A stretch of 64,000 nucleotides of DNA from assembly GCA_000165345.1 (NCBI GenBank), contig CM000433.1, positions 896,001 through 960,000 of the forward strand. The letters run 5' to 3'. Every line of letters begins with the position of its first letter. Position 1 is the first letter of the stretch. The notes below the pieces were generated by a model. The model was not told the DNA's origin, did not search any database, and saw only the letters and a program-made list of their open reading frames with translations. This document shows positions 10,564-26,254 of the stretch, in pieces. A program made the position numbers and the translations under genes.

Positions 10564-11679
10564 TCAATAATCCATAAAGTCTAAATATGATTCAGTAAAA
10601 TTTTCTTTGTTAGATTTAACAATTATTTCATTAGAAATAGTAAAGTTTAATCCTGTAACAATATTTACTTCATTATCATAAAAATATTTTAATTCTTTAA
10701 CTTGACCCAAAGGAACTCCTACTGTGAAGTTCGACTCCAAAAAATCCAAAGTAACTAAAGCTGGGGAATACATTAGATATGCAGGAATATGTTTGATATT
10801 TGGGTAAACAACTATAGGAGTACTGCTAAAATGCTTTACTAGAAATTCCAATGCGGGAGGAAAAGGAACTACATCGTCTTTCATTCCCCAGAAGAAGATT
10901 ATTTTAAAAGTATTTTCGTATTTGGATAATCTTTCAAAATCCAAATGTCTGTCAAATAAGTTGCCATCTCCGCCTGATTTAATATATGTTGAGAACATTT
11001 GGTGAAAAACGTTCGTAGTGGCTTTTTTTTCTTCTTTAGTTTGTTTTCCCAATTTAACATATCCCAATTTGGAGGCGCAATAAAATCCACATCTAAACAC
11101 TCTTTTAGAATTGTGAATGTTCTTAATGGCACTAACAAGAGAAGAATTTGATAATCTGTATAATTTTGGAAAATCATATTTTGTCATTATTCCAGGTGGG
11201 CACATTGGTATTAAGTTACTAATATGATCCGGGTGTTCTAATGCATAATTGATAATGATTAATCCTCCCATTGAAACACCTAATAATGAAATCTTCTCTA
11301 CAGCTTTATTATCACTATCAACCCACCCAACATGTTTAAGCAATTCATTTAATTGATCAACAAATCTTTTTTGTGAGAAAAAACCAGGAAGTTTCCATTC
11401 AGTGTTAGCATGTCCTAATAAATCATAGGTTAAAACTTGATAACCAGTATGAGAAAATATACACCTCCAATTATCAAATTGGGTTGAAGCTGCTAACAAA
11501 CCATGTACCATTACAATTCTTTTTTTTTGTTCTTCTTTAGTTATAGTATAAAAAGTTCTTCCGGATTTCAAATCTGCAAAATCAGATTTAATTACACAGG
11601 AGGAGCCTTGATAGAAGCAAAGTGTAATAAAACAGATTAATGTGATTACGTATTTCAAGTTCATTTTTGCCAAATTCAA
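10564..11679 (-). CDS. Secreted alpha/beta-hydrolase (lipase/esterase-like)
   Basis: 371-aa ORF with an N-terminal signal peptide. The HG oxyanion motif (VMVHGLL) and the nucleophile elbow G-x-S-x-G (LLGVSMGGLI) are both present. The spacing is typical of the alpha/beta-hydrolase fold. Confidence 0.8.
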   Translation of the reverse strand: MNLAKMNLKYVITLICFITLCFYQGSSCVIKSDFADLKSGRTFYTITKEEQKKRIVMVHGLLAASTQFDNWRCIFSHTGYQVLTYDLLGHANTEWKLPGFFSQKRFVDQLNELLKHVGWVDSDNKAVEKISLLGVSMGGLIIINYALEHPDHISNLIPMCPPGIMTKYDFPKLYRLSNSSLVSAIKNIHNSKRVFRCGFYCASKLGYVKLGKQTKEEKKATTNVFHQMFSTYIKSGGDGNLFDRHLDFERLSKYENTFKIIFFWGMKDDVVPFPPALEFLVKHFSSTPIVVYPNIKHIPAYLMYSPALVTLDFLESNFTVGVPLGQVKELKYFYDNEVNIVTGLNFTISNEIIVKSNKENFTESYLDFMDY

Positions 11680-12573
11680 GACCTTAATTGATTTTTTAAT
11701 ATATTTACTTAATTATATACTTTGAATCTAAATGCAGGACCAAATAACTAAATACAAAAACTTTAGGAAATTAAAAAAAGCTAATAAAGGAGTATTATTA
11801 GAATTTCTTTCCACTAAATTTATATGGTTGCAAAAAGTAGAAAACAAGTATCGGAGAAGCCCGCCAAAGCTATCTTTTTCTATGTAATTCGTGAAATTTA
11901 ATATTTACAAAATATTACAAGGCAAATATTTTACTTTTTTCAAATAAAGTTATTTTTTCAATATTAAGAATTAGAGTTACTTAGTCTCATTACCCAATAG
12001 AGATTAAACAATAAGGATGTTTTATTTTGTTTTTCTTTCAAAAATACTATCGGTTTTTTTTTTTCTTATGGGAAAAGAATTAATTTGTAATTAATTAAGC
12101 CTTTCTAACTCTTTGAAAATTGAAAGATAATACACGAAAATATTTGTTATTATTTAAAAGTTGAGAGATGTAATATTGCTTTTGAATATTCTAATAATAT
12201 ACTTAGTAACTAAATAAATGAGCAGATTATGTTTTTAAGTTATTATGATAGTTAATAGAAAATATTTTGTAATTTTTCTTGTTTAAAACTACTACATTAT
12301 TGTTTTTATTAATATTTCTATTTTTAGATTTATCAAGCATAGAATGACTTTTTTTTTTGTAATAATCTAGTTAAATTGAGTTAAACACAACACACAAGAT
12401 ATTCCTAACCTTTTGAAAATACTGGAATTGGATTCAAATATATTTTTTCCTAATTTTTTTCATTTTTTTTTTTTTTTTTTTTTGCAATAATATGCAAAGT
12501 TAAAATTTATATTTTTTTTTACTTATATATAGCGGTAAAAAAAAATTGTATTACGTGTTTGCATGAATGTACT

Positions 12574-12622
12574 TTACCGCCAAATGTCATGCTTAGAGTA
12601 ACTCATGCATCGCGACAACGCG
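12574..12622. promoter_or_regulatory. E2F-like and CGCG motif cluster in the 1.6-kb bidirectional spacer between the hydrolase (-) and RING-membrane (+) genes
   Basis: tttaccgccaaatgtcatgc...catgcatcgcgacaacgcg. A 20-nt poly(T) run lies nearby at 12464..12483. Confidence 0.4.
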
Positions 12623-13286
12623 TAAAATAAAGTACCAGGATAAATAAAGTAATAGGAAAAGGTAATAAAAAGCAGCATAATTAAATGGAATAAAAGGTAG
12701 AATTGAGATCAAAAAAAAGCATTAGGAAAAGACAAGAAAAATTAGTATTGGAAAAAAAAAAAATTACTTTTTGTTTTAATAAATCCGATTTTAAGCATTA
12801 ATTAAGTAATAATTAAGAAGAGAGTATAAAAGATTAGGTGATCTTTGGAGGAATTACGACAAATTAAGTTGAGAAAACATTTTTGAAACTCTGATAAAAC
12901 GATCACATGAATATTGTAAATAATTAAATTGAACTATAAATATAAATAGTGAAAAAAAAGGTGCCTTGCTTCATATTACAATAAAGAATACTGATTAAGA
13001 CAAAAATTAATCACTAAATTCAATAGAAGAGAGATATTTAGTATATTTGAAGTAAAAACTTAAAATAAAGATTAATATAAATATATATATTATATATATA
13101 AATTTATATTTTTATATGTGCAGAACAGCATAAATAATAAGGTATATATAAATATATACTTAAATATTTTCATATTTATTTATATATTATATAGAGAGAT
13201 GCAAAATTCATTAGAAATTTCTACAGAGGAAGTTGGTATAATGAGAAATAATGGCTTTGTTACAGAAGAGGAACAGAATCACTTAA

Positions 13287-15303
13287 ATGAAAGTTTTGGG
13301 TTCGAGGAATGAAGAAAATATAGAGTTAACTGAGAATCAAAGAGTTATAAGAAATTCTCAAAATGAAGAAAACTCAAGTAATCTAGTTAATAGACAACAA
13401 AATAACTTGGAAGGTACAAGATTAATAAAATTATTGAGAAAATATGCAGAAAAAGTGCGTGAGTGTTTAATACAACTTGAATATAATTCAAGAGCACAAC
13501 TTCCATTAATCAAGTTTGTTCTGAGAATCTTCATTATCTTATCTTTAACAATTCTACCTCTAATTAACGAAATCCACTCAGTTACTCCTCTTTTGTCAGT
13601 TTTTCTAAGAGAAAGTGATTGGTTTCTAATTCCAATGTCAATGAATAAACATGCAATTAACAATGACTTGTTATTAAGAATAAATCAGCATGAATATAAT
13701 ATGTTATTACAAAAGAAAAACTATCAACAAAGAATTAACCATAGTATTTTTCCAGGATTATTGAATCCCTATGATGATAACGGACTTTTTTCACAGAATT
13801 TAAAACCAAAAAAGTCAAAAAATAACTCAAATGTGTGCATTAATAGGGATGCCCGCCTTTTGATTTCAAAAGAGACTAGTTTAAATTATGAGCATTTGTC
13901 ACTATTAGTACCGACTATTTGGTGTCCAATATCTAATTTGAATAATGAATTTAATCAAGTGATTTATAATACAAGAAGAGAAGGGCAGAGCAGAAAGGTC
14001 AAGATATTATATATGAACAAGGATCAAAATACACGAAATAATATTCTGGGATTAACTTCTTTGAAGATGCATAAAAATACATATAGATATAGACCAACCA
14101 AAATTTTTAAGATTATCTCTACTTCTTTTGTAATTATAAGATGGTTTATGTTAATTTCAAGAATGGTTATGCAGCTTTGGAGTTTTAATACATTTTTTCC
14201 AAACACTGGAAATAGTAATAATATTAATAGTATTGCACAATTTCAGTTTATCCAAGAATTTAAGTCATTGGTTTCTTTTAGCATCTTCTATATTTGGTCA
14301 TTATCATGTGTATACTTATTATTTGGGCTTACAACCAGTAAATGCAGTATTTTTCCAAAAATTGCAATACATGAGAAAGTACAATGGCTACTTTGGAATT
14401 TGTGTACTAATTACTACAATTTGTTTCTATGCTACTAGGTTACCATACTTTGACTATCAAGAAGACTCTAATAATTCAAACTCTTCTGGTTCTAGTAGTT
14501 CTGTAAATAATAATAATAATAATCAATTAGAAGAAGAAAATTATCGCTTAAAGAAAAGGAAAATTTTTATCCAACATATCCTCTCAGTGATTTCTTGTTG
14601 TGGATTTGGATTTTCATTAAGTGGTAGTGTCCTTTTACTATCTACAAGAATTACTAGTCCTTGGGTTAATTCTTGCTTTATTACAATTATCTCACAATCT
14701 TTAGACCTCCTATTAAGAGGTTATTTGGGGCTTATTATTGATCATCATAGCTTTGAAGAAAAAAAGATCAGATATTATAAATATGTATTTCCTTCATACC
14801 TTTTAAAAGATGAAGAGAAGATCCATTGCAATAATAATGGCCAAAGAGAGTGGGTTGTAAAGTGTAACTATAACTCCCAACCTCCTCCTTTAATCTTTAA
14901 GCATTCTTTTATTTCAATCAGTTTAACCAAAATATCATCCACATTCTTTTCACTTAATAACTTCTCTAATAATGAAGAACAAACAGATTCTCAATCAAAT
15001 AATGCTTCTCAAACAACTAATTGTATGATATGTTATGAAAATCCAAGTAATATAGTTTTTTCTCCATGTTTACATAGTGGAATATGCGATAATTGTATAG
15101 ATGAACTAATGAAGTGGACAGTATGTAAATTAAAGAAAATTCCATGCTGTCACCTTTGCCGTTCACCTATTGAAATTGCATGGCAACTTAATCCTAATGA
15201 ATCCAATTCTAATGAAAATAATTACTTTTCTGAGAAATGCACTGAAGTTATTTATCCCAAGTTACAAATTTATGATGATTCTAATGAAAAGAGCAACTTA
15301 TAA
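13287..15303 (+). CDS. Polytopic membrane protein with a C-terminal C3HC4 RING finger (membrane-anchored E3 ligase-like); two exons
   Basis: Exons are 13287..14214 and 14282..15303. The intron 14215..14281 (67 nt) has a GTAATA donor and a TTTCTTTTAG acceptor. It joins the frame-0 ORF to the frame-1 ORF with no stop, and its length is 1 mod 3 as the frame change requires. There are several hydrophobic segments. The C-terminus reads CMICYENPSNIVFSPCLHSGICDNC...CCHLCRSPI. The architecture parallels the paralogue at 18342..20534. Confidence 0.55.
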
Positions 15304-15693
15304 AATTCAGAATCATTTATACTAATTTTATTTATAATTATACTTCTTTTTTCATATACTAATATTATTTATCAAATAAGTCAAGAATTACTATATTTTA
15401 TTAATCAAGGGACAGATATAAAAAAAATAAAAACTGAGCATAAAGCTGTTCGTCATTTTTTTTTATTAATAATAATATTAAATTATAATTTACCAATATA
15501 TACTTTTTTCCAAATTCAATTATTTTTTTTTTTTCTTTATTATTTATTGGTATTAACACTTTCTCATTTACTTAATATTATTATTTCCACATAAAAAATT
15601 TCCCAACTAGTAATTTTAATACCGGCATTTAAAAAATGACGTGTGTAATATTTAACAAATTTTGCATGCAACTTTTAAAGAAAATCAGAATTT

Positions 15694-17430
15694 TTATGGA
15701 ATTGCAAAAATATGTATAGATTGGTCCTTATGTAAGCATTTTGGTGATTGTCTGTTTTTCTTCTTCATTTTATCTGAAACTGTTACAATCATATTATCAG
15801 AAATGAAAGAAACTCCTTCAACGTTACAATATTTAAAGTCACAAACATGGTCTCTTGGGAAATAATAGACCCGCCCATTGGGAAGTAGTTGAATCTTATC
15901 AGGATCCAAATATTCTCCGTCTCCATAATCTATTTCTCCAATCCATATACTTGAGTCTTCCTGTGAAGTTATTGCTACTTTATTACCTCTTACATCAATT
16001 GATGAGTAATCTTGAAAATTAGCTTCTTTAGGAATGTTAATCATCCTAACTGATTTCCATATGCATTTTGATTTTAAACTATTCATATCACTATTAATTG
16101 TATCCCCAGTTGTTAATTCTGTTGTTTTATTTATATATTCCTTCTTCATTAAAATGAGTCTTCCATTTCCATATTCTTCTCCTTTCATTTCTCCCATACA
16201 AAAATTGCCTTCGCAAAGTCCCAATAAATAAAAATCACCATTTCGCGTTCTTAGTCCTATTGCTCCCTCAAATCCTTTGTTATCAAAATCAAACTTATGT
16301 TCTGCAGTGCATGTTTCTAAAACTTCATATGACTCAACATTATTCACCTTTACTAATGCTAATTCAATAATATGTGAATGATAATGCCTAGAAGAATTAT
16401 GATTTTCGTCTTTTAAGTTCTTTGAAAAATCTTTATATAATTTTAATTCTTCTAAATCATGTGGTATTGATTCTCTGATTACAAATAAATGCCCTGTAAT
16501 ATCATCCCTTACAATTGCTTCCCACTGTGAATCCTCAGTATTTGGATCAGTTCCTAATAAAAGTGTATTAATATCCAAAGGATTTCCACCTGATGTTGTT
16601 GTTTGCATATTTAATAGTTTATTTGAATGTGAAAAAGGAGTTAAGCTTAATCCAAATTTTCCAATAGTCCAAGAATTATCACAAACTACCCACATTTCTT
16701 CATTAAAAACTTTAACATCACTTGCTTCAAATTTTCTTATATTCAAAGTATCTTTGGGTAAGGCAAAATATGAAAGTTCATAAACCAGTTTTAATACTTT
16801 CTTTGTGTAATCCTTGTCATTACATATATCATTTTCTGCTGCTCTTTTATTTATACCATAAGTGTTATAATGACTTCCAAATACTGAATTCACTACATCT
16901 AACGTTGTATTTCCTCCTAAATTGATAACATCTTTAATTATATGATCATTATCTTTCTTAGTTACATTGCCATTAATATCTATTACTGAGCTTCTATTTG
17001 TCACTCTTTCACTATCCCCTAAAATTAATGAACCTGTTTTATTTTGTTCCATATTTGACATTTGAGTTGAATTTACTATTTGTTTCACATTTTTATTCTC
17101 ATAATTATTATAAGCTCTTCCCTCATGTTTCTTCTTTAAAAGTAGAGCATTTTCAAGCATTTCCTTTCTCAATTCTATTCTATTTTTAACTGGTAATTTT
17201 ATTAGTACTAGTAAGCTAATAAAAGCAGCCAATATAACTAAAAATCTTAATATAGATGAAAACTTCTTATTACCTAAATTAAAATACTCATTAAAGAGAT
17301 TATTACTGACATTTCTATTATTAGTATTGGAATTTTGATTATCTGAAATATTAAAGTAGTTATTACTAAATCTTCCCAATGAAATATAATCACTTTCAAT
17401 TTTGTTATCAAAGTTATTATACATATCCAT
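15694..17430 (-). CDS. Hypothetical type II (signal-anchor) membrane protein with a large C-terminal lumenal/extracellular domain
   Basis: 578-aa ORF starting at an ATG. It has a single hydrophobic segment (ILRFLVILAAFISLLVLIKLPV) after an N/S-rich cytosolic N-terminus. No recognisable catalytic motif. Confidence 0.6.
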   Translation of the reverse strand: MDMYNNFDNKIESDYISLGRFSNNYFNISDNQNSNTNNRNVSNNLFNEYFNLGNKKFSSILRFLVILAAFISLLVLIKLPVKNRIELRKEMLENALLLKKKHEGRAYNNYENKNVKQIVNSTQMSNMEQNKTGSLILGDSERVTNRSSVIDINGNVTKKDNDHIIKDVINLGGNTTLDVVNSVFGSHYNTYGINKRAAENDICNDKDYTKKVLKLVYELSYFALPKDTLNIRKFEASDVKVFNEEMWVVCDNSWTIGKFGLSLTPFSHSNKLLNMQTTTSGGNPLDINTLLLGTDPNTEDSQWEAIVRDDITGHLFVIRESIPHDLEELKLYKDFSKNLKDENHNSSRHYHSHIIELALVKVNNVESYEVLETCTAEHKFDFDNKGFEGAIGLRTRNGDFYLLGLCEGNFCMGEMKGEEYGNGRLILMKKEYINKTTELTTGDTINSDMNSLKSKCIWKSVRMINIPKEANFQDYSSIDVRGNKVAITSQEDSSIWIGEIDYGDGEYLDPDKIQLLPNGRVYYFPRDHVCDFKYCNVEGVSFISDNMIVTVSDKMKKKNRQSPKCLHKDQSIHIFAIP

Positions 17431-17900
17431 AGCTTTCTGTTTTACTTCTACTACTATTTTATGTAATTAATATTATTCTTTTTAAATTTCATGAAATGAT
17501 GCCAATTAAATTATTTATCTATGTTAAATCCGTTTAAATTTAAGAAATTATATAACTTGAATTGATATAACCCTTTAATTGTATAGGCACACACACATTT
17601 ATTAATATTTAAATGATCATTTAGCTTGAATTTAAAAAAAAACAAACATTAATATTTTTGATCTATTCGCAAACTTTTTTTTTTATTTTGCATATTTGCA
17701 TATAATCACATTTTCCCCTCATTTTTTTGATTATCCTACTCAAAAACAAATAGAAAAACTTAGATTAATCATAAAGACACTAACACAACCTGAAAACTAT
17801 CTAAAATACTAGCTATGCGCACTATGATCAATCATATATTATCTTATTTATATTCAATTTAACTTTTATATGGTATCGAGTGAACAAAAATTATTCCAAT

Positions 17901-17945
17901 ATTGCCGCCAAAACAGCCTCATGTACATGTGACTTTGGCGGTAAA
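17901..17945. promoter_or_regulatory. Paired E2F-like sites (TTGCCGCCAAAA and TTTGGCGGTAAAA) in the bidirectional spacer between 15694(-) and 18342(+)
   Basis: attgccgccaaaacagcctcatgtacatgtgactttggcggtaaaa. The two sites are in inverted orientation. Confidence 0.45.
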
Positions 17946-18341
17946 ATTGCCTGGTCAAAGGGTGCATATATTTAAATTAAATTGATCAAGACTCACAAAT
18001 ATAAAATGGGTAAACAGTGAAATAGGTGTCAGTTTTTGTTTTTAAAAAATTGGGGAAAAAGAACTTATAATATTATTTTTTTTTGGTTCATTAGTAAGAT
18101 TGATAAATTAATAATTTATAGAGATCTTTTTTCTCTCATTCTAATTTAATAAAATTCAAGTGAAAATAATAGCAATTTACAAAAAGGATCAAAGTTATTT
18201 TACGTTAAAATAATTAAGATGAAAAATATAATAAAAATATGTATAACCGTATTTTAATTATATGCTCAGTAAATTAGAAAATTGAAGTATTTTTTTCTGA
18301 ATTCAACTAAATAATAAAAAAAAAGAATTTTTGGAGTTGAA

Positions 18342-20534
18342 ATGAGAAACGAAAATGGTATTGCTAATTCTAGTCAAAAGCTAACCTTAGGCAAACATGT
18401 TTTGCGCGCCACTTTGATTCTCACAATATTACTACCATTTATCTTGGAGATATATTATTTGATACCTAATTTTGTTTCGTTTTATTCAGGAAAAGAATGG
18501 GTAAGAGTATTACTTGATGAAAACCAAAATAATGATTTGAGAACAATAAGCAAATCAAACTCAACAGAAAGCAATGTAATGGATAGGATGGCAGTAGATA
18601 AGAATGACAATATATTGATAATGTTAATCAAGAATCCAATTTCTCACATAGTAATTCAAGATGTGTTTTTGGATAAGAGTGTGTCAGAAAATAGTTTGAA
18701 AAAAAGTATAAGAATACCAAAAACAAGGGGAGTAAAGAATTATTCTTCAAGAAGTAAAAAAGAATTAAGTGGAGATAGACTTTTAGTAAGAAAAGATAAT
18801 TGTAACTGCCCAGCATTGGAAAATTCATTTTCAAATATAGTAGAGAATGAAAATGGCGAATTTTATTCATTAATGCTTGATGGTCAAAATAGTGTGAATA
18901 ATCCAATATTAATACAGGTGATATCTCTAATATTATTATTGTTTAGATGGGTCATATTATTAATGTATATAGTGGCTCAGCTTTTTCTTCCAATAAAAGC
19001 TGTAAGACAGATAGTAAACAAGAAGTTATTAAGGTCTAGTGCAATATCAGTTTTTTATGTTACAAGTATATCTCTATCTTTAACCATAGTTGGTTTAGAA
19101 GGTAAAGATTGCATAAGTTGGTGGTTTCTTGGATCTTCTCCAGAATATATATTGTTGATACAAGTTTTTGTTTGGTTAATAGCTAGTGTTTGTATTTTTC
19201 TATATTTGGTTCAATACTTTTTAGAAATAGTTTTGAATGTATCTAGAAGATACAAATTGTTGAATGACTTCATAACAACATCTATTTTTATTCCAGCAGG
19301 ATTACTGATAATCGTTTCAATAAGCTTGTGTATTCTGGGAATAATTAAACCATGGATATTTATGGCTTGGCTAACAACAGCAGTAACTGAGTTTGAGAAA
19401 AATTTAAGAATATTAGCAAAAGTTTATGATGAAGAATTTCCATTAGAAGCAGAAACAAGTTGGAGTAGAAATTCTATTTTTTTCAATAGAACAAACAGTA
19501 ATAATGTCAGAGAAGAGCATAAAAATGAAATTAGCGTAGTAGAATTAAGAGAAGATTCCAATGATGATAAATCTGAAAAAATGAAAGAAAATAACTCAAA
19601 ATTAAATACTAGAAGAGAAAATGATATTTTAATAATACCCATTAGTAATTCATACTTTAAAATATTGGATTATAGCCTTGATAATTTTTGTACAAAGTTA
19701 TGTTTATGGTACATAACTCAGCATAATGAAGCAGATAACAAGCTAGTTTCTAGAATTGAGTTAGAGGAACATTCAAATAAGAACTCACTAAAAATATTCG
19801 AATTTTCAATAACAGATTTTGTTAGGAATTTGGATTTAGAGGAAAAAGGTATAGATAAAAATTCGTCAAGAATATGCCTAACAAAAGTTAAATCATCATC
19901 ATCAGACTCGACAGTTTCTAGAATCAATTCATTTCATACAGAAAATATGAGTGAAAATACAAATAGTCAATTTATTTGTAATATATGTTTCCTGGATTTT
20001 GATTCAATAATTATTTTTTCACCATGTGGGCATGGAGGTGTATGTTTAGAATGCCTTGGAGATTATATATCGAACAATTTCAAGTTAAAACAACATCCAA
20101 AATGCCACATATGTCGGGAAGATATTTCAAAAATGATAGAGATTCAAAAGGGTAAGGAACAAATTAGTCAAGATAAGTATATATTTGAAGAGGCAAGAAG
20201 CTTTGAGACAACTCTAAGCAATAAAGTGAATTCGATTAATGAAAATAATGTGAATGACATTCATTTAATTTCAAATACTAAATTAATTGCTGAAATTTCT
20301 TGTAATTCAAGAAATAGTAATTCCTCAAGTTATAGTAGAAGTTCCAGCTCTGTATCTAATCGAGATTCAAATTCAAGCATTATTACTCTTAAAATATCAA
20401 GAAAGAATTCAGATTTATGGTCACATCCACGTATTAAAGAATTTATTAGCGATAATGAAACTAATAAATTAAAAACTTGGGTTCGTAGTCATTTTACTCG
20501 ATTTTTTACTAATTCAAATAGAAGATTAAGCTAA
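18342..20534 (+). CDS. Polytopic membrane protein with a C-terminal C3HC4 RING finger (paralogue of 13287..15303)
   Basis: 730-aa single-exon ORF starting at an ATG. At least four hydrophobic helices lie in residues about 190-340. The C-terminus reads CNICFLDFDSIIIFSPCGHGGVCLECL...HPKCHICREDI, the same RING subtype and position as the 13287 gene. Confidence 0.7.
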   Translation: MRNENGIANSSQKLTLGKHVLRATLILTILLPFILEIYYLIPNFVSFYSGKEWVRVLLDENQNNDLRTISKSNSTESNVMDRMAVDKNDNILIMLIKNPISHIVIQDVFLDKSVSENSLKKSIRIPKTRGVKNYSSRSKKELSGDRLLVRKDNCNCPALENSFSNIVENENGEFYSLMLDGQNSVNNPILIQVISLILLLFRWVILLMYIVAQLFLPIKAVRQIVNKKLLRSSAISVFYVTSISLSLTIVGLEGKDCISWWFLGSSPEYILLIQVFVWLIASVCIFLYLVQYFLEIVLNVSRRYKLLNDFITTSIFIPAGLLIIVSISLCILGIIKPWIFMAWLTTAVTEFEKNLRILAKVYDEEFPLEAETSWSRNSIFFNRTNSNNVREEHKNEISVVELREDSNDDKSEKMKENNSKLNTRRENDILIIPISNSYFKILDYSLDNFCTKLCLWYITQHNEADNKLVSRIELEEHSNKNSLKIFEFSITDFVRNLDLEEKGIDKNSSRICLTKVKSSSSDSTVSRINSFHTENMSENTNSQFICNICFLDFDSIIIFSPCGHGGVCLECLGDYISNNFKLKQHPKCHICREDISKMIEIQKGKEQISQDKYIFEEARSFETTLSNKVNSINENNVNDIHLISNTKLIAEISCNSRNSNSSSYSRSSSSVSNRDSNSSIITLKISRKNSDLWSHPRIKEFISDNETNKLKTWVRSHFTRFFTNSNRRLS

Positions 20535-25041: not shown

Positions 25042-26254
25042 TCAATTTTTCATAAACTTCATTCTTTCTTCTAAAGAAGAAATTTGTTTTTGATTGATTT
25101 TATTCCTCATTTCATGCAAATATTCACGATGTTTGGCGGGCTCTTTATTCGAAATATTACTTTTAGCATTAAATTTCTTAATTCTTTCATTTTGAGTGAG
25201 TTTTCCATAATTAATCATTTTTTGAAGTTTTTCTTCTCTATCTGATTTTGAAAGATGATGGTTATTTTTATTTCTTCTATTTACATGAGTGTGAATATTG
25301 TATTTTTTTCTTGAATCATTCTGATGTTTGTAATTATTTGAAAAATAGGGTTCTGATGGTCTCTCAGGTGATCTTGAGAGAGAACTTTTTCTAAACTTTA
25401 TATTTTTTTCTGAAGTTGTTAATTTCAAATTTGCTTGGCAAAATTCATCACGCTTTTTTTTATAATCATCAACTATTTTCATATGTTTGAGTTCCATTTG
25501 CTTAATAATTAGTAAAGGATCTTCTTTTAGTCTGTTGATGATTTCTTTTTCTTCCAAGTCAAAATCTGCCTCCAGATTTTCTTGGTTTTGAAATTTTGTT
25601 TCACCCAATATTTTGGATGTATTTTCTGGAATATTAGCACCTGAAATAGATTAAATACAAAGTAAATTAATAACTAAATTTTAATTTATTTGGATGTGTG
25701 GGCTTCTTATTAATATTTTGTATTAATTTCTTAGTAAAATGAGTCAATATTTAAGTATTTATTGATATTCTTTTTTTATTTTTTTTTTTTTTAAATGAAA
25801 AAGATGAGTAATTTGTCAAATCAATATTTAAAATTGAAGTTTTGAGAATTTAAATAAAAACCATACTTATTAATTCATTGGTTCCGGAAATGTATATTTA
25901 TTGATTTTCTCTTCAGAAAAAGTGAATATTAATTTAAAAAGAAAAAAAAATTGAGTATTAAATTTGGCTTGAAGCTGAAGTTTTTTTAATTTAACATTTT
26001 AATTATAGCCCCTTAATAACATTCAAATATTATCATATTTCTATCATTTCTATTATTAATATCAATTTATTACTTTAATTATTAAAAAAAAACAGCTCTA
26101 TTTTACCCCCAAGAAAAAAATAGTCTTAACCAATATCATTTTGCAGAACCCCATCTTTTAAATTAAAGAACTTACCTAGTAAATACTTTTCATTGTCATA
26201 TTCTAACAAAGCTTTTGGGTCATAAAGAAACTCCAATCTCTCCTTATTACTCAT
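25042..26254 (-). CDS. CWC25-like pre-mRNA splicing factor; two exons separated by a 535-nt intron
   Basis: Exons are 26176..26254 (MSNKERLEFLYDPKALLEYDNEKYLL) and 25042..25640. The donor is GGTAAGTTC and the acceptor CTATTTCAG. LEFLYD..KYLLG and RLKEDPLLIIKQME match the CWC25 family motifs LEWMYQ..DYLLG and KIREDPLFIIRK. The ORF-track start at 25608 is a TTG with the frame open upstream. The C-terminus is K/R-rich. Confidence 0.5.

Follow-up and report, generated by a model that had tools for sequence, protein, structure and literature searches.

The 64,000-nucleotide window analyzed here (positions 896,001 to 960,000 of contig CM000433.1, assembly GCA_000165345.1) lies on chromosome 5 of Cryptosporidium parvum, is AT-rich (22–31% G+C), and gives 99.9% alignment with three independently assembled C. 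parvum contigs. Ten genes occupy its positions 1..20534, and our subject is two of these, A and B, each of which encodes several predicted membrane helices followed by a C-terminal RING domain (Table 1). As an initial annotation of the window had stated, the two lie on the same strand with one gene between them; this separator is on the opposite strand. The translation of B is 100% identical to C. parvum EAK87548.1 and QOY41793.1. We infer that A is cgd5_3970, the middle gene cgd5_3980, B cgd5_3990, and the gene at the window start cgd5_3900, because these names fit the gene order and a table in Ponts et al. 2008, which groups cgd5_3990 with cgd5_3970 and includes cgd5_3900 as a further RING gene (PMC2408969). 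A and B are ordinary genes that are already annotated and have been catalogued together since 2008. In our literature searches that paper was the sole one naming the cgd5 identifiers of A and B, and none was found that names their GenBank or CPATCC identifiers.

Table 1. Features of genes A and B, of the gene between them, and of a third RING gene. Positions are in the window, or in the protein where amino acids (aa) are given; AF2, AlphaFold2; pLDDT, predicted local distance difference test; ORF, open reading frame.
Feature	Position	Strand	Description
Third RING gene	1..1635	+	C-terminal 544 codons of a gene for 1052 aa that the window start truncates; putative cgd5_3900
RING-H2 of third gene	1408..1602	+	found by six-frame RING-consensus scan
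Gene A	13199..15303	+	putative cgd5_3970; CPATCC_002394; 700 codons, single exon after removal of two spurious bases
GGG run with one extra G	13296..13298	+	shifts the frame and makes a false start codon at 13287
A membrane domain	13494..14736	+	aa 99-512; from hydropathy scan and helices of the low-confidence AF2 model
A helices 1 to 6	aa ~103-124, ~302-323, 356-378, 393-412, 455-481, 485-510	+	predicted
Proposed 67-nucleotide GT...AG intron	14215..14281	+	coding sequence; encodes SNNINSIAQFQFIQEFKSLVSF
AA with one extra A	14396..14397	+	frame change between ORFs 13287..14438 and 14233..15303
RING of A	15022..15159	+	C3HC4, 46 aa from first to last cysteine; PF13920 35.9-37.3 bits
Intervening gene	15694..17430	-	putative cgd5_3980; 578 aa; no Pfam match
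Gene B	18342..20534	+	putative cgd5_3990; EAK87548.1 / CPATCC_002392; 730 aa, single exon, intact
B membrane domain	18396..19385	+	aa 19-348; helix 1, ~140-aa loop with invariant C-x-C, helices 2-6
B helices (AF2)	aa 10-48, 189-214, 233-250, 267-298, 305-331, 337-363	+	predicted; pLDDT 55-75 here
RING of B	19977..20114	+	C3HC4, 46 aa from first to last cysteine; PF13920 34.6 bits

The reading frame of A is broken in the window, and the initial annotation accounted for this with a start codon at 13287 and an intron. Neither feature survived comparison with other sequences. Base-by-base alignment of the window with three C. parvum contigs from Logan revealed two extra bases in A. The first, a G that produces the false start, is missing from five of five other C. 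parvum sequences, all of which have GG at this point (the three Logan contigs and the finished chromosome assemblies CP044418.1, from IOWA-ATCC, and CP141122.1). The second, an A, is missing from all three Logan contigs, which carry a single A there. With both bases removed, A becomes one uninterrupted ORF identical to QOY41795.1. Its real start, masked in the window by the extra G, is the ATG at 13199, upstream of 13287 and in another frame, and the N-terminus that it opens, MQNSLEISTEE..., is conserved in the orthologs.

The segment proposed as an intron is itself coding. Orthologs of A, found in ten Cryptosporidium species or isolates and 684–843 amino acids long, run through it in frame and without a break. 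Its product contains Q and K-S-L-x-S-F positions that are at least 90% conserved among the ten orthologs, and it leads into membrane helix 3. Past 14281, 39 further nearly invariant residues follow in the same frame (IFYIWSLSCVYLLFGLTTSKCS...VQWLLW) and join the downstream ORF at ICVLITT, so that the orthologs read ...VQWLLW-ICVLITT... across the site of the extra A. The frame change falls 116 nucleotides downstream of the 3' end of the proposed intron, and the one extra base explains it. A gene of two exons starting at 13287 does find GT and AG dinucleotides at the right places, and taking out the 67 nucleotides reopens the frame. Its spliced product, however, would lose about 60 residues that are nearly invariant in ten orthologs (FIQEFKSLVSFSIFYIWSLSCVYLLFGLTTSKCS...VQWLLW) and gain unconserved sequence; it would also leave the conserved true N-terminus outside the gene and in a different frame, whereas all other C. 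parvum sequences have a single uninterrupted ORF. We consider such a gene structure next to impossible.

The extra G and the extra A are single-base homopolymer insertions, most likely sequencing errors of the 2004 Iowa II assembly, for which indel and frameshift artifacts have been reported (PMC8744675). An old annotation entry, EAK87546.1 (310 amino acids), has the length of the ORF past the second frameshift when read from an internal methionine at MRKYNGYFG, a correspondence of length only; it fits a window that comes from the 2004 assembly. If both frameshifts were instead real in the isolate behind the window, A would be a pseudogene there and only B functional. Both extra bases do stand in the window, the old annotation held only the 310-residue fragment, and small differences do build up in passaged lines (PMC8744675). 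Against this, two independent inactivating indels would be needed in the more conserved of the two paralogs: A is more conserved than B in every species pair for which both were compared (for example, 83.5% versus 68.8% in C. ubiquitum), which makes a real pseudogene unlikely. A is intact, moreover, in every other C. parvum, C. hominis, C. tyzzeri, and C. meleagridis sequence, including that from IOWA-ATCC DNA, which has the same source as the DNA of the 2004 assembly (PMC8744675), and seven other homopolymer-length differences within the same 14 kb suggest a general pattern of indel error. We therefore think a pseudogene improbable, if less so than a spliced gene. A is intact in the organism, and its apparent split is caused by two extra bases, not by an intron. 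We also rejected a programmed frameshift, as A is a plain ORF in other isolates.

The seven further differences (window positions 12054, 12349, 12463, 12752, 12951, 15523, and 20746) are one-base differences in the length of poly-A or poly-T runs relative to other C. parvum contigs. All are intergenic, and some vary among the other contigs too, so that the set combines errors of assembly with real variation. Single-base substitutions distinguish the window from three C. parvum contigs at 14753, 16110, 16591, 17260, 17278, and 18395, inside A, cgd5_3980, and B. That at 14753 exchanges Phe to Ser in A (SFEEKK versus SSEEKK), the window version being that of QOY41795.1.

The initial annotation had also described A and B as paralogous polytopic membrane proteins, and it took similarity outside the RING as the test of this. 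Such similarity is significant over helices 1–3. In a BLASTP comparison of A with B, the RING (E 8e-11) was accompanied by a collinear stretch comprising helix 1, the long loop, and helix 2 (E 4e-5). We then compared the ortholog alignments of A and B profile to profile with hhalign, leaving out the RING, and obtained a match of 242 columns running from helix 1 to the cysteine after helix 3 (E 2e-4, score 43.0). Because membrane helices can look alike by composition alone, we ran controls: 40 shuffles that preserved local composition reached at most 26.2, with a mean of 19.3, and reversed profiles scored 17–19. In an independent comparison, C. muris B matched C. parvum A at helix 1 (E 8e-4) and, in corresponding order, at helices 5–6 (E 0.016).

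A merged alignment of 19 A and B sequences has 38 invariant columns, of which about 22 lie outside the RING. Among these, helix 1 or the stretch just past it supplies a Glu and a Pro; helix 2, a Trp and a Gln; and helix 3 with the residues after it, a Tyr, a Ser, a Gly, and a Cys. Also invariant are the Trp of a P-W turn and, in the region of helices 4–6, G320, S326, L329, W338, T345, and R356 in B numbering. The best local match between A and B in the latter region is the equivalent P-W turn between helices 5 and 6. Overall identity between A and B is about 22%. Judged by these alignments, A and B are paralogs beyond the RING for the first half of the membrane domain.

We weighed this against the idea that A and B share the RING only, having acquired a like architecture through independent fusion of RINGs to unrelated membrane domains. 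The loops of the two proteins are indeed very different, helices 4–6 have no significant similarity on their own, and B was missed, at a database-wide E ≤ 0.001, by a profile of the A membrane domain. Independent fusion would nevertheless leave unexplained the collinear similarity over helices 1–3, which exceeds its controls, the invariant non-RING columns spread across all helices, the same count and order of helices, and the adjacency of the pair in all species examined. We judge it very unlikely and treat A and B as true paralogs.

Their duplication is old. The locus of C. muris reads EF-hand gene, RanBP1, hydrolase, A, minus-strand gene, B, and its B-like gene is a clear B ortholog (E 5e-65). 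The C. parvum isolates share the layout of A, minus-strand gene, and B, with the intervening gene in the same position and on the strand opposite to both. This shared layout places the duplication before the split of C. parvum and C. muris. In C. ubiquitum, C. felis, C. ryanae, C. bovis, and the chipmunk genotype, a single contig carries both A and B, and by their locus tags just one gene separates the two in C. ubiquitum (cubi_02042/02044) and in C. bovis (FG379_000051/53). B has orthologs in C. muris and in nine further species or isolates. The local duplication suggested by the initial annotation calls for a qualification, as the low identity of the two genes and their common layout in C. 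muris make it old rather than recent.

The family appears confined to the genus. The profile of the A membrane domain, with the RING left out, was run against 1.84 billion representative proteins and matched three clusters, all of them Cryptosporidium A orthologs, and no fungal, Plasmodium, or Toxoplasma protein; that B was not retrieved at the database-wide threshold shows how deeply A and B have diverged. At the level of sequence, the A membrane domain is therefore restricted to Cryptosporidium. In C. muris, a gene of the Mpv17/PMP22 family lies between the hydrolase gene and A (8410-9288 of the C. muris locus L004). The corresponding spot in C. parvum, window 11680-13198, is a gene-free stretch of 1.5 kb, long for a compact genome, in which we found no tblastn trace of an Mpv17/PMP22 gene and no ORF longer than 58 codons.

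Both proteins have the multi-helix membrane core and C-terminal C3HC4 RING that had been described for them: in each, a hydropathy scan places five to six hydrophobic helices before the RING. A begins with an N-terminus of about 100 residues, followed by six predicted helices, a conserved juxtamembrane segment, and the RING; the loop of about 175 residues between its helices 1 and 2 is probably lumenal. The AF2 model of B, built from the merged 19-sequence alignment, contains six long helices (mean pLDDT 41.7), with values of 55-75 in the membrane domain only. That of A, built from a 10-sequence alignment, has the same helix number and is otherwise unusable (mean pLDDT 36.5). As read from the sequence, basic residues of B are concentrated at the N-terminus, past helix 6, and in the two loops that follow helices 2 and 4. 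By the positive-inside rule, and with six helices, this placement agrees with an N-terminus and a RING in the cytosol and a first loop in the lumen. We accordingly predict, for both proteins, that the N-terminus and the RING face the cytosol and that the long first loop, with its conserved cysteines, is lumenal. Pfam searches with all 19 family members found no family for the membrane domain; two Claudin_3 matches were treated as noise.

The RINGs of A and B belong to one C3HC4 subtype, in agreement with the initial annotation. The motif quoted there is present in both, as C-M-I-C...S-P-C-L-H-S-G-I-C-D-N-C...C-H-L-C-R-S-P-I in A and C-N-I-C...S-P-C-G-H-G-G-V-C-L-E-C...C-H-I-C-R-E-D-I in B, and both exceed the 27-bit gathering threshold of Pfam zf-C3HC4_3 (PF13920). 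So do 19 of 19 A and B orthologs; C. muris B, at 25.6 bits, is just below. All eight zinc ligands are invariant in the 19 sequences of the merged alignment. The two RINGs have in common a long loop of 16–17 residues between the sixth and seventh ligands, containing the motif K-L-K (R-L-K, K-Q-K, R-Q-K, or K-L-R in some orthologs) and then P-x-C-H-x-C-R, and in both a His follows the seventh ligand, where most such RINGs have Pro. The Ile after the first Cys and the Arg after the last are kept in A and B across the genus; in RINGs, this Ile is a contact for the E2 and this Arg is the linchpin. In sequence and profile searches of the PDB, only RING domains were matched. The best sequence matches were the RINGs of cIAP1/2, XIAP, MYLIP, CGRRF1, MEX3C, and MUL1, all ubiquitin ligases, and the solved RINGs nearest to A are those of cIAP1/2, CGRRF1, and MYLIP.

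With one RING subtype and complete sets of zinc ligands, the earlier view that A and B are probably membrane-embedded ubiquitin ligases, itself a prediction from sequence, is plausible. Nothing about the two points to an unusual mechanism: the RING would recruit a ubiquitin-charged E2 on the cytosolic face, and the membrane domain or the lumenal loop may select membrane or secretory-pathway proteins for ubiquitination. One or both RINGs might instead be inactive as ubiquitin ligases and serve as a partner with a structural role, as a module for interactions, or as a ligase for a different modifier. Among known RING pairs an inactive partner is common, and the His in place of the usual Pro departs from the norm in both A and B. 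Since both families have nonetheless kept, across the genus, the zinc ligands and the usual E2-contact residues, we find inactivity unlikely and favor ligase activity for the pair.

Known ligases resemble A and B in parts. The PF13920 RINGs listed above, including MYLIP/IDOL, share with them the C3HC4 pattern and the Ile and Arg positions. A and B differ from these in having about 8–10 extra residues between the sixth and seventh ligands, His for Pro after the seventh, an attached membrane domain of six predicted helices that has no detectable relatives, and a tail of 40–130 residues after the RING, which in consequence is not the protein end. MUL1/MAPL, of the mitochondrial outer membrane, is likewise anchored in a membrane and carries at its C-terminus a RING of that Pfam subtype, though its PDB match was weak (E 0.22–0.34). 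MUL1 has two helices around an intermembrane-space domain; A and B, by comparison, have six predicted helices and an unrelated loop. Polytopic ligases of the endoplasmic reticulum, of the Hrd1/gp78 and Doa10/MARCH types, act through a cytosolic RING on membrane or lumenal substrates, and this is the mechanism that we propose for A and B. Hrd1 uses a RING-H2, and Doa10/MARCH use an N-terminal RING-CH, whereas A and B carry a C-terminal RING-HC and their membrane domains have no sequence match to those of either type.

A and B also resemble the yeast Asi proteins in architecture. One row of the 2008 table places cgd5_3990 and cgd5_3970 together with P. falciparum PFL0440c, T. gondii 540.m00204, and yeast ASI1 (PMC2408969). 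Asi1 and Asi3 are a pair of related polytopic proteins of the inner nuclear membrane, each bearing at its C-terminus a C3HC4-like RING on the side away from the lumen (PMC2063887). They share with A and B the N-terminal polytopic half, the C-terminal RING, and the existence of two related paralogs, and this architectural and pairwise resemblance is real. The 2008 grouping was not reproduced, and no fungal protein matched the A membrane-domain profile. The N-terminus of Asi1 is lumenal and its helices are odd in number, probably five (PMC2063887), in contrast to the six helices and cytosolic N-terminus predicted for A and B; and Asi1 and Asi3 have the partner Asi2 and an inner-nuclear-membrane location, whereas A and B are not known to have an Asi2-like partner or a nuclear location. 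Membership of A and B in the Asi1/Asi3 family is consequently not supported, as the profile matched Cryptosporidium only and both helix number and N-terminus differ.

By analogy with that pair, A and B might be two subunits of one heterodimeric membrane ubiquitin ligase, exclusive to Cryptosporidium and similar to Asi1/Asi3 by independent or unrecognizably diverged origin. Each paralog would then supply one RING and one half of a site that recognizes substrates within the membrane. The RING subtype of A and B often dimerizes. Compatible with such a complex are the persistence of the two copies as neighbors, which goes back beyond the split of C. parvum from C. muris, the complete RING in each, and the conservation of polar residues inside the helices. 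We offer this idea tentatively and hold it to be improbable as it stands.

An octamer, TTTGGCGG, is present in eight copies in the window, where chance alone would give 0.18. The divergent intergenic regions upstream of the two genes contain two copies each, for A at 11861-11868 and 12577-12584 and for B at 17905-17912 and 17934-17941, and the others are at 25132, 50311, 55341, and 63124. The two upstream regions further have the 12-mer TTTACCGCCAAA in common. We take the octamer to resemble the E2F-like promoter element described for Cryptosporidium. Its copies could indicate co-regulation of A and B, though each of the two regions also serves a gene on the opposite strand.

A third RING gene lies at the start of the window, and the initial annotation had counted it with A and B. 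It does encode a RING-H2, as claimed; it is neither a complete gene nor a third member of the set. Its frame is open to base 1, the ORF 19..1635 comprising the last 538 of 1052 codons, and the full gene is complete in newer assemblies (L005:6474-9632). The RING matched zf-RING_Vps41 (E 0.004) and zf_RING_Vps8 (E 0.05–0.4) weakly, below the Pfam threshold, and cgd5_3900 has been annotated as a CORVET component (PMC2408969). We rejected this gene as a relative of A and B on account of its RING-H2, the Vps41/Vps8-type character of the weak matches, and its place on a larger, cut gene. A protein search with translated window 1-1632 gave no match at E ≤ 0.001, not even among C. parvum proteins; the low-complexity, Asn/Ile-rich composition may be responsible.

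A RING-consensus scan of the 64 kb in six frames returned exactly three RINGs, those of this gene, A, and B; the RINGs of A and B match the pattern C-x2-C-x(9-39)-C-x(1-3)-H-x(2-3)-C-x2-C-x(4-48)-C-x2-C. The count of three RING ligase candidates in 20 kb is thus correct; we do not find it noteworthy, as two of them are paralogs and, with about 50 RING proteins (PMC2408969) among about 3900 genes (PMC8744675) in C. parvum, simple arithmetic puts the chance of one unrelated RING gene among about ten neighbors at roughly 12%. Elsewhere, the plus-strand ORFs 6419..7219 and 7445..8524 (window 6419-8524) correspond to a single gene of 589 residues annotated both in C. muris and in newer assemblies of C. 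parvum. This gene probably contains a real intron near 7100-7445, and Pfam gave no match for it.

We put at roughly 85% the probability that A and B are ancient paralogs found only in Cryptosporidium that encode membrane RING proteins of about six helices, presumably ligases, with A intact and its split due to two assembly insertions. Several points weigh against this interpretation, the prospect that both frameshifts are real among them. Helices 4–6 with the linker, compared by themselves, score 14.6, below the shuffle maximum of 23.1. Helix count and topology are predictions from hydropathy and from weak models, those of A and B both being of low confidence, and Foldseek searches of the PDB with these models returned nothing below E = 1. 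The cgd5 identifiers of A and B, as noted, derive from gene order and the 2008 table. Our literature search found no functional study, experiment, expression, or localization data on either gene.

The most useful outcome is a corrected gene model for A: knock-outs, tags, and ortholog tables built on the 2004 sequence or on the intron model would have the wrong protein. In a parasite with so small a complement of RING proteins, A and B would be among the few membrane-bound RING ligases, and, because their membrane domain has no detectable relative outside the genus, they are a candidate parasite-specific regulator of membrane-protein turnover.

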